From positions 1 to 17,299 of IMG/VR virus record IMGVR_UViG_2531839532_000008: a DNA stretch of 17,299 nt; one strand, written 5' to 3'. Origin of the DNA: a virus. Its lineage: Duplodnaviria > Heunggongvirae > Uroviricota > Caudoviricetes. Shown in pieces: positions 2 to 5,861 of this stretch. The notes beneath the pieces were generated by a model that ran no database searches, was not told the origin of the DNA, and worked only from the letters and a program-made list of their open reading frames with translations. The number at the start of each line of letters is the position of its first letter. Position 1 is the first letter of the stretch. Both the position numbers and the translations under genes were made by a program.

Positions 2-568
2 TTAGCCTCTTATCTTGAATTCTGCTATAACTTTGCCGATGAATACAAGGTCATTAATGTTCATATCAACAATGATATTCCCATAGTTAATCTTAACTTT
101 ATTATCAGGAATTCTAATAACTTGTTTTATAGAATGCTTTCCATCAATGGAGATTAACCAATCACCATCAACTACATCTGTGAAATCCCTCTCAATAAAA
201 TAAGAGTTATTCCCGTTTGATATCACAGATGGTGATGATAAACCATCAGGAATGAACACCTTGTCAAACATTAGTGTTCCTGCATCCAATAGCACTCCAT
301 CAATCAATTTTATTTTTTGAATATTGATGATGTCAGAAGTTAAATATTCATGTTTAGGAGGTAAGCCTGTTACCAGCCACTTTATGTTTACTCCTGTTTC
401 GAGCGCGCACTGAATAACCCAATCAGAAGGGAATGAATCTCTCATGTAGCGTGTAGCAAGACTGCTTTTTGATATGCCTAGTTGTTCACATAACGCCTGT
501 CTTGTAGTGAACCCATAGGCTTCAACCATCCTTTCGATAGCTTTCTTTCCACCTTGACTAAAATCCAT
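2..568 (-). CDS. Phage immunity repressor, 186 CI-like (N-terminal HTH plus C-terminal domain)
   Basis: The ORF 2..673 translation contains MDFSQGGKKAIERMVEAYGFTTRQALCEQLGISKSSLATRYMRD...CALETGVNIKWLVTG, which resembles the N-terminal DNA-binding region of 186-type CI repressors. Start chosen at the ATG at 566-568, which has an AAGGTG ribosome-binding site just upstream; the 35 codons further upstream in the ORF are probably not translated. Divergent from a Cox/Apl-like gene. Confidence 0.78.
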   Translation of the reverse strand: MDFSQGGKKAIERMVEAYGFTTRQALCEQLGISKSSLATRYMRDSFPSDWVIQCALETGVNIKWLVTGLPPKHEYLTSDIINIQKIKLIDGVLLDAGTLMFDKVFIPDGLSSPSVISNGNNSYFIERDFTDVVDGDWLISIDGKHSIKQVIRIPDNKVKINYGNIIVDMNINDLVFIGKVIAEFKIRG

Positions 569-569
569 C

Positions 570-643
570 GATTTCACCTTGTGAACTTTATGGTTGACGA
601 TTTCAATTTGTGATCTTATAGTCGCATTGATTTCAAAATGTGA
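570..643. promoter_or_regulatory. Three direct repeats GATTTCA-N3-TGTGA (570-584, 599-613, 629-643) at 29-30 bp spacing; candidate operator set of the lysis-lysogeny switch
   Basis: Read directly: cGATTTCAcctTGTGAa, cGATTTCAattTGTGAt, tGATTTCAaaaTGTGAc. Copy 1 overlaps the repressor ribosome-binding site, copy 2 lies in the spacer of the candidate rightward promoter, copy 3 lies at its predicted transcription start. Confidence 0.55.
594..622 (+). promoter_or_regulatory. Candidate early lytic promoter (pR/Pe-like), TTGACG-17 bp-TATAGT
   Basis: Near-consensus sigma70 -35 (594-599) and -10 (617-622) hexamers with a 17 bp spacer, oriented toward the Cox/Apl-like gene that starts at 695. Confidence 0.55.
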
Positions 644-694: not shown

Positions 695-916
695 ATGACT
701 CAGCACATTTCAATCACATTAGCTGTCCCATCCATTTCGGTTGAAAAGTACAGTGAACTCACAGGGTTATCTGTAGACACTATCAACAGTATGCTCGCAG
801 ATGGACGCCTTAAGCGGCATCGTCTTCGCAAGGATAAAAAACGTGAAAAGGTAATGATCAACATTGCAGCCATGACAGTGGATGCGCTTGCCGATTGCAA
901 TGTCGTAATCAATTGA
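695..916 (+). CDS. Cox/Apl-like small HTH protein (Cro-like switch regulator, possible excisionase)
   Basis: 73 aa ORF divergent from the repressor, with an AGGAG ribosome-binding site. Motif EKYSELTGLSVDTINSMLADGRL resembles the HTH of P2 Cox and 186 Apl. Position as first gene of the early operon matches those phages. Confidence 0.62.
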   Translation: MTQHISITLAVPSISVEKYSELTGLSVDTINSMLADGRLKRHRLRKDKKREKVMINIAAMTVDALADCNVVIN

Positions 917-948
917 TTCGATTTTGAAATAAAGGGAAGGGGCTGACT

Positions 949-975
949 ATGTTTGATTATCAAACCTCCAAACAT
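949..975. promoter_or_regulatory. Inverted repeat ATGTTTG-N13-CAAACAT (half-sites 20 bp centre to centre); candidate CII-type binding site
   Basis: Perfect 7 bp inverted half-sites at 949-955 and 969-975. I recall the 186 CII site at pE as ATGTTTG half-sites two helical turns apart, but that is from memory and not verified. Confidence 0.35.
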
Positions 976-1461: not shown

Positions 1462-1635
1462 ATGAAAGCGTTTGTTACTTATCTCAAAAATGAATCACCA
1501 GCTATGCAGCTGCCAAGCGGTTCCACTGGTTGGATTGAATTGCCAAATGGCCAGCGCTGGAATCCTGGCTATATGTACAAATTCAATGGTCAGCAACCGC
1601 GCCGTCCGTGGTGGCGTCGCCTGATGGGGCTATAG
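1462..1635 (+). CDS. Small early-operon protein, 57 aa, unassigned
   Basis: Not in the supplied ORF track (below its length cutoff); read by hand as ATG 1462 to TAG 1633-1635 with a GAGGGAG ribosome-binding site 7 nt upstream. It fills the gap between the CII-like gene and the next ORF. Confidence 0.45.
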   Translation: MKAFVTYLKNESPAMQLPSGSTGWIELPNGQRWNPGYMYKFNGQQPRRPWWRRLMGL

Positions 1636-2541: not shown

Positions 2542-2775
2542 ATGCACATGACACGTCAGGATTTACCCGCAACAAAATCAGGCACTGACCTGCTGGCCAT
2601 GCTCACTAAAGCCACGCAAGAAGGTAAAGCCGCAGTTGCTGATCTGTGTTCCACCCGCCTGGATAAGCTGGCCCCCCATGCAGCCAATGAAGGTTTAAGT
2701 GCAACGGAAATTGTTGAATTAATCCGCGAAGAAGCCGCAGCGATTTGCGGTAAAGGCGGTGCAGCATGGCAGTAA
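2542..2775 (+). CDS. Early-operon hypothetical protein, 77 aa
   Basis: ORF with an AAGGAAA ribosome-binding site. Its 3' end overlaps the start of the methyltransferase gene. Confidence 0.5.
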   Translation: MHMTRQDLPATKSGTDLLAMLTKATQEGKAAVADLCSTRLDKLAPHAANEGLSATEIVELIREEAAAICGKGGAAWQ

Positions 2776-3635
2776 AAACTCCGCTTAAGTGGGTGGGAAG
2801 CAAAGCCCGCCTTATGCCTCAGTTGCTTCCCCATCTGCCGGAAGGTAAGCGCCTGATTGAACCTTTCGCCGGTTCCTGCGCTGTCATGATGAATACGGAT
2901 TATGACGAGTATCTGATCGCTGATGTGAATCCTGATCTGGTCAATCTGTATAAGACGATGGCTTATCACACAGATGCGTTGCTTATTGAACTGGAGGCTT
3001 TGTTTTTTGCCGGTGCATTAGGCGATGAAGAAAACCGGGCAATTTTCTATTACGCAGTGCGTGATGCTTTCAACCAGTCCGGTAAATCCTTTGGTTCTGA
3101 ATCTGTGGAAGCTGCGGCGCGTTTTCTTTATCTGAACCGTCACTGCTTCAATGGTCTGTGCCGATACAATCGCCGTGGCCAGTTCAATGTTCCGTTTGGT
3201 AAGTACAAAAAAACGTACTTTCCTGCTGATGAAATACGCGCATTTGCTGAAAAAGCGAAACGCGCAACGTTCATTACTGCCCACTATTCAGAAACGCTTG
3301 ATTTGGTAAGGGACGGGCATGACGTTGTTTATTGTGATCCGCCTTACCTGACTGATACCGACAATTTCACCGCTTACCATGAGCGTGGTTTTTCGCACAT
3401 GGATCAGGGACGGCTGGCGCGTAAGTTGCGCCGCCTGGCTGAGCGTGGGATTAAGGTTGTCGCGTCAAACAGCGATCTGGAAATGGTACATTACCTGTAT
3501 GCAGGATTCGAAGCTGTACGGGTAAATGCACCGCGCAGTGTGGGTGCAGCAGCTGCAAGCCAGAAAGTTGCCGCAGAGCTGATTCTTAAGTCACCTGCAA
3601 ACCCGGCGATCGACGTTAGGGCGGTGGTGGCATGA
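2766..3635 (+). CDS. dam: DNA adenine methyltransferase, Dam family (GATC-type, D12 class N6-adenine MTase)
   Basis: Translation carries hallmark Dam motifs: LKWVGSK, EPFAGSCAV (AdoMet binding), FLYLNRHCFNGLCRYNRRGQFNVPFGKYKK and VVYCDPPY (catalytic DPPY). It aligns by eye along its length with E. coli Dam. Confidence 0.9.
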   Translation: MAVKTPLKWVGSKARLMPQLLPHLPEGKRLIEPFAGSCAVMMNTDYDEYLIADVNPDLVNLYKTMAYHTDALLIELEALFFAGALGDEENRAIFYYAVRDAFNQSGKSFGSESVEAAARFLYLNRHCFNGLCRYNRRGQFNVPFGKYKKTYFPADEIRAFAEKAKRATFITAHYSETLDLVRDGHDVVYCDPPYLTDTDNFTAYHERGFSHMDQGRLARKLRRLAERGIKVVASNSDLEMVHYLYAGFEAVRVNAPRSVGAAAASQKVAAELILKSPANPAIDVRAVVA

Positions 3636-3844
3636 TGGCGGAAATTATCACCGGCATTTATGCCTTGTTTGCCTGTTTTACTTTCGCCTTTCTCTTATGG
3701 GACGAATGTCAGGATGAATTTGATTACGATGCTGAGGATTTAGGGTTAATCACTCTGAGTGCGGTTCTCTGGCTACCGCTGGTAGCGGTCGTACTTGTGG
3801 CCTTCCTGATTGATTTCTGGGGCAAGTGGGTTAACCGTGGCTGA
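3632..3844 (+). CDS. Small hydrophobic protein, two predicted transmembrane segments, 70 aa
   Basis: The ORF overlaps the Dam stop (ATGATGG). The sequence is dominated by two hydrophobic stretches (IITGIYALFACFTFAFLLW and LITLSAVLWLPLVAVVLVAFLIDFW). Confidence 0.45.
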   Translation: MMAEIITGIYALFACFTFAFLLWDECQDEFDYDAEDLGLITLSAVLWLPLVAVVLVAFLIDFWGKWVNRG

Positions 3845-3845
3845 T

Positions 3846-5861
3846 ATGTTGGAGCCTGGCCAACACCACGCCGTCAATGCCTGGCGGCGTGAAACCTTTG
3901 CGCCTGGCACCCCGTCAGATGCGACGATCACAGAACGTCGCCTGTGGGCTGTTAACCCTCAGGATTACGAATGGCGTTCCCAGTACCTGCATGAGATACC
4001 CGACTGGTTAGCCGGGTATTTTGGCAACCGTTACGAAAAGCTGCTGTCTGGTCGTGACGGGCGTCGCCGTGCCAATACATTCCTGCGCAAGACTATCGGC
4101 GGGAATGTATTGCCACGTCTGCGCAAAGTGGCTGCACGTTACAAGCTGGCCGCTGATGCACTTGATCTTCCTTTCGGTAAGTCGCTGGAGCGACTGCCGT
4201 CACTTGACCGCCCGGACCTCAAAAAACTGGCTGGTCAGATATCTGGCTGGATTTCCCAGTCACTTTATGACTTCACCGATCAGTTTGTGGGCAGCACTGA
4301 CGATGCCGCAGAGCTGCGCCGCCGTACGCTGGAGTCTTACCGCCATTTATGCACATGTTCCCTGATGCTGAACAATCAACCGCCGTACTGGGCAGAGCAT
4401 GAAGCTAATGGCGGGCAACTGGAAACGCGTAAGGCTGAATCCGGGATTCTTCGCATGATGGCACCTGAATGGTGGTATCTGCGTCTTAAGCGAGCGCGTG
4501 ATATGCAGCGTGAGCATATGGCCATTGCCGTGGGGCAGGTACAGAAAGCCGCCAGTGCTTATGTGTCCCGTAAAACCCTGGGCGAATGGATAGACCAGAA
4601 AAAGCGGAACCTTGAGTTCTTCAAAAAGTTTGACCTCCTGAATGATGAAGGGCTGCGTATTGCGCTGGACAGCATGGTGCACCGCAGCGTTGCTAATCCG
4701 GCGATCCGTCGCTGTGAGCTAATGGTAAGAATGAGAGGATTTGAAGATATGGCCAATGAAGAAGGGCTGGCCGGTGAGTTTTACACCATCACTGCGCCAT
4801 CGCGATTCCATGCGGTACACAGCAAAGGGGGCTTTGTTTCACAGTGGGATGGCTGCACCCCGCAGGACACCCAGCGCTACTTATGCGGTGTATGGGCGAA
4901 AGCCCGCGCCGCTATTTCCCGGGCAGGTATCCATGTTTTTGGTTTTCGTGTGGTAGAGCCTCACCACGATGGCACACCGCACTGGCACATGCTGCTTTTT
5001 ATGCGTCCTGGTGACGTGGATACCGTGCGCGATATTCTTTGTTATCACGCCAGAATTACCGACTCCGAAGAACTGCAAACGCCAAACGCGCTAAAGGCAC
5101 GTTTCCATGTTGAAGCCATCGATCCCGCTAAAGGTTCGGCTACGGGTTATATCGCCAAATACATATCCAAAAATATTGATGGATTTGCGCTGGATGGTGA
5201 ACAGGACGACGAAACAGGGGAAAACCTGCGGGATATGGCCAAATCCGTTTCTGCATGGGCTTCACGGTGGCGCATTCGCCAGTTTCAGCAGATTGGTGGT
5301 GCGCCGGTGACTGTCTGGCGCGAGTTGCGCCGGTTGCGTGATCAGGTGCTGACTGACCGCCGAATGGATGCGGTTCTGGCTGCTGCTGATGTTGGGGACT
5401 GGGCTGCATACACCCAGGCGCAGGGTGGCGCACTGGTTGCCCGCCGTGATTTGGTTGTTCGTCTGGCTTATGAAATCACGGAACAGGGTAATGAATACGC
5501 AGAGGACGTGCAGCGTGTTCAGGGTGTCTATTCGCCATTGGTTCCAGATTCAGCGGTATGTACGCGCCTGGTGAAGTGGCAGAAGGTTGCGAAGTTGGCC
5601 GAAGCGCCAGCGGAGGCGGGTTTTTCTGGCGGCAACGCCGCCCCTTGGAGTTCTGTCAATAACTGTACGGAGGGGGGAACCCGCAGACGGTTAAAACTGG
5701 AATTACGCAGTCGGGGTTTTGATGGTTCCGATGAAGAAATAGCCATTCTCCTGCGGGGGAGTGGTTTGATATTTGGTCAGGGGGCACTGATTTACCGTAA
5801 CGGGCGGCTTAAAGAGACTCAAAACGAGCCATTGCAGGAGCTGTGGCCGGGGTGGTTGTAG
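3846..5861 (+). CDS. Replication initiation endonuclease, P2 gpA / 186 A family (HUH rolling-circle initiator)
   Basis: Contains the HUH metal-binding motif (GTPHWHMLLF) and a tyrosine motif (GYIAKYISKNIDG) typical of the P2 A family. Start placed at ATG 3846, one nt after the upstream stop; an in-frame ATG at 3810 and GTG at 3837 are alternatives. Confidence 0.88.
   Translation: MLEPGQHHAVNAWRRETFAPGTPSDATITERRLWAVNPQDYEWRSQYLHEIPDWLAGYFGNRYEKLLSGRDGRRRANTFLRKTIGGNVLPRLRKVAARYKLAADALDLPFGKSLERLPSLDRPDLKKLAGQISGWISQSLYDFTDQFVGSTDDAAELRRRTLESYRHLCTCSLMLNNQPPYWAEHEANGGQLETRKAESGILRMMAPEWWYLRLKRARDMQREHMAIAVGQVQKAASAYVSRKTLGEWIDQKKRNLEFFKKFDLLNDEGLRIALDSMVHRSVANPAIRRCELMVRMRGFEDMANEEGLAGEFYTITAPSRFHAVHSKGGFVSQWDGCTPQDTQRYLCGVWAKARAAISRAGIHVFGFRVVEPHHDGTPHWHMLLFMRPGDVDTVRDILCYHARITDSEELQTPNALKARFHVEAIDPAKGSATGYIAKYISKNIDGFALDGEQDDETGENLRDMAKSVSAWASRWRIRQFQQIGGAPVTVWRELRRLRDQVLTDRRMDAVLAAADVGDWAAYTQAQGGALVARRDLVVRLAYEITEQGNEYAEDVQRVQGVYSPLVPDSAVCTRLVKWQKVAKLAEAPAEAGFSGGNAAPWSSVNNCTEGGTRRRLKLELRSRGFDGSDEEIAILLRGSGLIFGQGALIYRNGRLKETQNEPLQELWPGWL

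Follow-up and report, generated by a model that had tools for sequence, protein, structure and literature searches.

A probable CII operator of the coliphage 186 type on the cII start codon of a P2/186-like prophage

The cII-like gene of the prophage described here opens with two inverted half-sites, which we read, at a probability of about 0.9, as the operator through which the prophage's own CII would activate, from upstream, a leftward promoter that depends on it and corresponds to pE of coliphage 186 (Eganvirus). The repeat lies in a 17,299-bp stretch of viral DNA, called the window below, whose features are collected in Table 1. The element is real and non-random and almost certainly functional; it is of a kind that is already understood, carried here by a new 186-type prophage.

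Table 1. Features of the switch region, in window coordinates
Feature	Position	Strand	Remarks
cI, CI immunity repressor gene, predicted target of pE	2..568	-	Pfam Phage_CI_repr and Phage_CI_C; leftward as in 186
Rightward early lytic, pR-like promoter, TTGACG-17-TATAGT	594..622	+	10/12 consensus; position equivalent to 186 pR
Cox/Apl-like excisionase-repressor gene	695..916	+	PHROG 575 'Cox-like excisionase and repressor', E 1e-26; same place as apl in 186
Predicted pE start	913..914	-	952 minus 38, +/-1; beside or on the Cox/Apl-like stop TGA (914-916); transferred from 186
Predicted pE -10, CAAAAT	921..926 (read 926->921)	-	Ends 23 nt before the ATG
Weak -35-like hexamer, TAGTCA	944..949 (read 949->944)	-	Candidate read from the sequence; 4/6; 17 bp from the -10; abuts the proximal half-site
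CII operator (probable), two inverted 7-bp half-sites	949..975		Half-sites, spacing and position identical to the annotated 186 CII binding site
Promoter-proximal half-site, ATGTTTG	949..955		cII codons 1-2 and base 1 of codon 3; by homology centred at about -38 of pE
Promoter-distal half-site, CAAACAT	969..975		Base 3 of codon 7 and codons 8-9; by homology centred at about -58 of pE
cII-like gene, 167 aa	949..1452	+	HTH recognition segment RPQILRN at residues 35-41; Pfam, PHROG and structure matches
Fil-like gene	1462..1635	+	Part of the order cI(-)/cox-apl(+)/cII(+)/fil(+)

Results

A rare inverted repeat inside the cII coding sequence

The repeat reads ATGTTTG-ATTATCAAACCTC-CAAACAT; its two 7-mers are perfect reverse complements, and their centres, at 952 and 972, are 20 bp apart with 13 bp between the half-sites. 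It starts at the cII ATG, 32 nt past the stop of the Cox/Apl-like gene, so that the left half-site is formed by the opening codons of the CII-like ORF (ATG TTT G), and all 14 half-site bases are inside the cII coding sequence. An earlier note on this DNA had pointed out just such a perfect inverted pair on the CII start, 20 bp centre to centre, and our reading of the sequence confirms it. On both strands of the 17,299 bp, this site is the sole match to the ATGTTTG-N13-CAAACAT pattern at up to one mismatch; dinucleotide shuffles of the window gave a mean of 0.01 matches, with any match at all in 2 of 200 shuffles. Allowing three mismatches added two further matches in the window, which is within chance. 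Since the lone 7-mer ATGTTTG is not over-represented in the window (3 seen, 4.1 expected), what is special about the repeat is the pairing of its half-sites and their position.

Two other palindromes in this stretch are probably due to chance. The tighter one, TTTGATTATCAAA (TTTGAT-T-ATCAAA, 951-963), is in the operator itself; it depends on the synonymous choices TAT CAA and is missing from most relatives. The other, a perfect 12-bp palindrome, AATCAATTGATT, spans 907-918, covering the Cox/Apl stop and the predicted pE start; about 4 such palindromes are expected per window, and it is not conserved in the same cluster of upstream sequences.

The switch region and its CII

The repeat is set among the genes of a lysis-lysogeny switch, that of a P2/186-like prophage of the Peduoviridae (Table 1). 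The CII-like ORF matches Pfam PF06892 (Phage_CP76/CII; E 6e-46), PHROG 101 ('CII-like transcriptional activator'; E 3e-43) and the solved structures of 186 CII (6VLI/6VPE/6VMH; E 5.6e-37). It is 43% identical to 186 CII, and alignment of the two proteins displays the invariant A29/G33/L39 pattern, on which, together with the published V36E/Q37S allele of 186, the assignment of the HTH is based. Among deposited phages the nearest are Salmonella phage S.Kent 1-2-1, whose CII is 95% identical, and the Escherichia ESSI2_ev phages; among species-representative genomes the nearest by CII is that of Raoultella terrigena, also at 95% CII identity. The genome_contigs set gave no exact match to 61 nt of the window's junction.

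At the other end of the switch, three direct repeats with the consensus (C/T)GATTTCA-N4-TGTGA, spaced 29-30 bp apart, occupy positions 566-643. Their span takes in the start of cI and both hexamers (-35 and -10) of the rightward promoter, and CI probably uses them as its operators at pR.

An annotated counterpart in coliphage 186

GenBank U32222 records 'protein_bind, CII, activate pE' at 23435..23462 of 186, that is, over the first 28 nt of cII, along with the promoter pE (23400..23462, complementary strand), activated by CII and giving the lysogeny-establishment transcript, and the CI site FR over 23404..23420. The 186 sequence at the annotated CII site is ATGTTTGATTTTCAGGTTTCCAAACAT, or ATGTTTG-ATTTTCAGGTTTC-CAAACAT. 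In PMC6593788, which summarises Neufing et al. 1996, Shearwin & Egan 2000 and Murchland et al. 2014 on 186 pE and CII, the half-sites are described as two helical turns apart and centred at -38 and -58 of pE, and the promoter as having negligible basal activity (~5 LacZ units) that reaches ~1140 with CII. The geometry agrees with the annotation: the centre of the proximal half-site, 23438, minus 38 gives 23400, the end of the annotated pE feature. From the annotated start and the -38/-58 statement we deduced a 186 pE -10 of TAAAGT, which ends 22 nt before the ATG. The earlier note had likened the repeat to the 186 CII/pE geometry, and the annotation of U32222 and the geometry given in PMC6593788 prove it right.

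The window and 186 share both half-sites, the length of the 13-bp spacer, the register on the cII start codon and the gene order cI(-)/apl-cox(+)/cII(+)/fil(+). They also share the CII recognition residues Q-x-L-R-N (RPQILRN in the window, NVQTLRN in 186) and a -10-like hexamer at an equal distance from the operator to within 1 bp, that of the window being 1 bp further away. They differ in the sequence of the spacer, in the intergenic region, in the Cox/Apl-like gene and CI, which are of a different immunity type, and in the promoter hexamers, the window having CAAAAT where 186 has TAAAGT and a -35-like TAGTCA with 4/6 matches against 2/6 in 186. Every defining feature of the 186 pE/CII operator that sequence can test is thus present in the window and, judged by sequence, the repeat at 949-975 is the orthologue of the annotated and well-characterised 186 operator.

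The predicted leftward promoter

By homology with 186, the pE start of the window should fall at about 913-914, just outside the 920-940 range given in the earlier note. The proposed -10 matches the consensus at 4 of 6 positions and the -35 is weak, so that pE cannot be called from the sequence of the window alone; indeed a consensus scan called no minus-strand sigma-70 promoter at the predicted pE, as expected for a promoter that depends on an activator. When the 60 nt upstream of the cII ATG are aligned on that ATG, they fall into 43 unrelated sequence clusters, made up of mosaic Cox/Apl genes and intergenic regions, and a minus-strand NANNNT hexamer ends 22-23 nt before the ATG in 41 of the 43. 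The background is far lower, other adjacent pairs of offsets averaging 5 of 43 and reaching 18 at most. The hexamers found at 22-23 nt include TAAAGT (186), CATAAT, CAAAAT, TAGGAT, AATAAT and TAACAT. The earlier note had seen no convincing -10 or -35 here; a leftward -10 can be recognised, CAAAAT, at the position kept across the upstream clusters.

The layout of the genes permits a transcript from this predicted promoter to run antisense through the cox/apl-like gene into cI, and a consensus scan of positions 520-1100 found no terminator-like site between the predicted pE start and cI. In the opposite direction, a plus-strand candidate, TTGAAA-18-TATGTT at 924-953, has 9/12 consensus matches and was set aside, 1.2 such matches being expected by chance in the region.

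Two further observations concern the DNA just upstream of cII. Conservation covers cII with its first 27 nt, and the DNA before them belongs to the 43 unrelated clusters; since these are common to different CII classes, a recombination junction lies no more than ~20-50 nt from the cII start. In the window, ATTTTGAAATAAA at 921-933 is a 12/13 inverted copy of 627-639, within the third of the pR-region repeats, and it overlaps the predicted pE -10. It recalls FR of 186, where CI represses pE; it matches one half of the putative CI operator consensus, so that an FR-like flanking operator for the window CI over the pE -10 is only hinted at.

Constraint on the operator DNA among relatives

Relatives were gathered by searching for cII loci with the CII of the window and those of 186, a Klebsiella prophage, PsP3 and ESSI-2 as queries, and 16 annotated phages were added. 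After removal of duplicates this gave 317 distinct sequences, and 19 further genome loci were examined separately. Synonymous variation was analysed in 234 distinct cII genes of the MF..KH classes, over 63 conserved degenerate codon columns. The codons of the operator are nearly frozen: F2 is TTT in 234/234, its synonym TTC being absent, K8 is AAA in 232/232, D3 is GAT in 232/234 and H9 is CAT in 226/233. In order of lowest codon diversity F2, K8, D3 and H9 rank 1, 2, 3 and 5 of the 63 columns; the naive probability of such ranks, 5/C(63,4) or ~8e-6, overstates independence, the sequences being phylogenetically related. Neighbouring codons vary freely, S7 in the spacer being TCC in 169 and TCT in 64 sequences and H11, beyond the operator, CAC in 165 and CAT in 65, and among the window's close relatives Y4 (TAT/TAC), Q5 (CAA/CAG) and T6 (ACC/ACT) alternate. 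The peptide can change as well: Yersinia prophages begin MFANGTDKH, with unrelated intervening residues, yet keep ATGTTTG-N13-CAAACAC.

The comparison of the 317 relatives supports selection on the DNA itself. A bias of start-proximal codons towards endings in A or T, serving translation, may contribute to the preference for TTT, AAA, GAT and CAT; the codons between the half-sites do not show that constraint. In effect the operator sets the first residues of CII (M-F ... K-H), and the overlap with the start codon is inherited within the phage family. The window has the perfect version of the repeat, whereas most of its own clade has TAAACAT in the distal half-site; the innermost base alternates between C and T and is therefore not critical. 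Position 9 of the site, which is the wobble T of codon D3 (GAT, 955-957) and lies two bases inward from the proximal half-site, varies as little (232/234) as the half-site positions do. Since it is not complementary to its symmetric partner at position 19, the constraint extends asymmetrically, on the promoter-proximal side.

Recognition helices and half-site classes

Other Peduoviridae (ESSI-2/Seongnamvirus, PsP3, Felsduovirus, P2-like prophages of Klebsiella and Yersinia, and K139/kappa) carry a two-part ATGTnnn-N13-nnnACAn at the same 27 nt, mostly with a -10-like hexamer 22-23 nt upstream. Sorted by the recognition helix of CII, the sequences fall into classes, for each of which we give the two half-sites. 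The largest has the helix xxQxLRN with ATGTTTG and (A/G)TGTTT(G/A), and its ~230 distinct sequences include the window (RPQILRN) and 186 (NVQTLRN). The PsP3 type, xPHTL(Y/W)N, has ATGTTAG and ATGTGA(C/G) in ~50 distinct sequences. The ESSI-2 type, xPATLRH, has ATGTACG and nnGTACn in ~19, and xPATLRC has ATGTACG and nTGTATG in ~6. A Q-x-L-R-N helix always pairs with ATGTTTG, the canonical class to which the window belongs. The ESSI-2 and PsP3 types differ from it in their cores (GTAC and TnA, respectively) and in the residues of the helix, the changes being Q37A with N41H/C in the first (loci L082 and L314-L335 in our numbering) and Q37H with R40Y/W in the second (L089 and L257-L313). These altered cores (ATGTACG..nGTACnn; ATGTTAG..(G/C)TCACAT) always occur with altered helix residues and an altered CII N-terminus, the N-terminal classes MF..KH, MY..VR/IH and ML..SH tracking the operator. 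When the helix changes, both half-sites change at the identical positions, 5 and 6, as a symmetric protein-DNA interface predicts. The cII- allele of 186, V36E/Q37S, falls in the HTH, and residue 37 is one of the co-varying positions.

Two sets of relatives depart from this scheme. Erwinia phage ENT90 (1001-1027) keeps ATGTTTG and a QTLRN helix, and its distal half-site now reads CACCCAA (MFDFQITTQ); either pE activation has been lost or weakened in this phage, or the site has moved. Four Vibrio phages (983-1027), kappa/K139 among them, have their cII start annotated 18 nt before the ATG that aligns with that of the window, which would place ATGTnnG-N13-CAAACAn at codons 7-15 and not at the start codon.

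Discussion

The arrangement suggests how the prophage would establish lysogeny. After infection, the rightward promoter would express the Cox/Apl-like protein and CII, and CII, through its HTH, would bind both half-sites, which share one face of the helix and are centred at about -38 and -58 from the predicted start. There it would bring RNA polymerase to a promoter whose -10 is recognisable and whose -35 is poor. Leftward transcription from pE would cross the Cox/Apl-like gene, in antisense, and the pR/pL region before entering cI, and cI driven from pE would supply the first burst of repressor for the establishment of lysogeny. The pR-like promoter, which serves cox/apl and cII, would converge with pE.

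An operator that physically overlaps the start codon of its own activator also invites a reading in which CII, bound there, represses its own expression, as a roadblock to rightward polymerases, at the level of translation, or both; the earlier note had proposed a combined transcriptional and translational autoregulation of this sort. We consider such self-repression unlikely, and the proposal gained no support. CII is an HTH protein that binds DNA, and it is not known to bind RNA. With its predicted start ~20 nt upstream of the cII Shine-Dalgarno sequence (~933-941), the pE RNA would not be antisense to the initiation region of cII and could not pair with it. In 186, according to PMC6593788, pR is unaffected by the concentration of CII when pE is inactivated, and its authors state that bound CII is no roadblock; the one feedback measured there is indirect, active pE cutting pR ~2.3-fold by transcriptional interference and thereby exerting a negative effect on cII transcription. 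In the published view of the network, the autoregulated component is CI, not CII.

The same bases could act in the mRNA, where a 7-bp hairpin would sequester the AUG and throttle translation of CII, conservation then reflecting RNA pairing; this seems to us very unlikely. The isolated 27-mer does fold in this way (-3.5 kcal/mol, z -2.2), the hairpin is present in the minimum free energy (MFE) structure of a 61-nt context, and the common C->T at position 21 retains a G-U pair. The hairpin is nevertheless marginal in energy: with 96 nt of context it is gone from the MFE structure, the region having less structure there than its shuffles (z +1.6), and it does not appear in that of the 186 equivalent. 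Across 66 unique sites, mismatches of the G-U type, which RNA tolerates, are no commoner (19) than those of the A-C type (22), and the half-site sequence itself is fixed within each class, the changes between classes matching those of the recognition helix, which a hairpin does not predict. The remaining alternative makes the repeat a by-product of coding M-F-D...S-K-H, with no function of its own. All 14 bases are indeed coding and the N-terminal peptide is conserved, but 0.01 such repeats are expected per window, the synonymous positions of the half-sites are frozen while their neighbours vary, the peptide between the half-sites is fully replaceable while the half-sites stay, and binding and activation at identical half-sites in 186 are annotated in U32222 and described in PMC6593788. 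Mere coincidence is effectively refuted.

The reading that we prefer, an operator for activation of pE by CII, has a parallel in lambda. Lambda CII sites are TTGC-N6-TTGC direct repeats, 10 bp apart, that flank the -35. In the window the repeats are inverted, 20 bp apart across a 13-bp spacer, and upstream of the -35, and the protein belongs to PF06892, so that the site does not belong with those of the lambda type. What is alike is the logic found at pRE, pI and paQ, where the early lytic transcript yields an unstable activator, and this in turn switches on a leftward promoter that converges with the lytic promoter and gives the first repressor; the site likewise overlaps the -35 region and is inside or next to the activator's own gene. 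The abstract of PMC7708051 describes 186 CII and lambda CII as unrelated.

For annotation, the operator places pE, and it indicates that this prophage has a complete 186-type switch of CI, Cox/Apl, CII and pE. The geometry from pE operator to -10, studied in one coliphage, is conserved in several hundred prophage sequences from Enterobacteriaceae, Yersinia, Aeromonas and Vibrio despite their mosaic immunity, and the operator constrains the coding sequence of its own activator's N-terminus. We lean, with considerable reserve, to the broader view that operator and activator form a co-evolving overlapping code, of which the P2/186-like prophages would hold at least three or four classes, possibly as orthogonal pairs. 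As the operator occupies cII codons 1-3 and 7-9, CII could change its DNA specificity only if the helix (residues 37, 40 and 41), both half-sites and its own N-terminus changed together, three simultaneous changes; this would account for cII moving jointly with its first 27 nt across mosaic immunity regions. The classes of helix and half-site are natural specificity variants and might serve as orthogonal activator-promoter parts. Such a code concerns the family rather than the window, which is an ordinary member of the canonical class.

Further along the window, between the early genes and the replication gene (3810-5861), a 289-aa ORF at 2766-3635 (+) carries a DPPY motif and, by its translation, has the look of a Dam-type DNA adenine methyltransferase.
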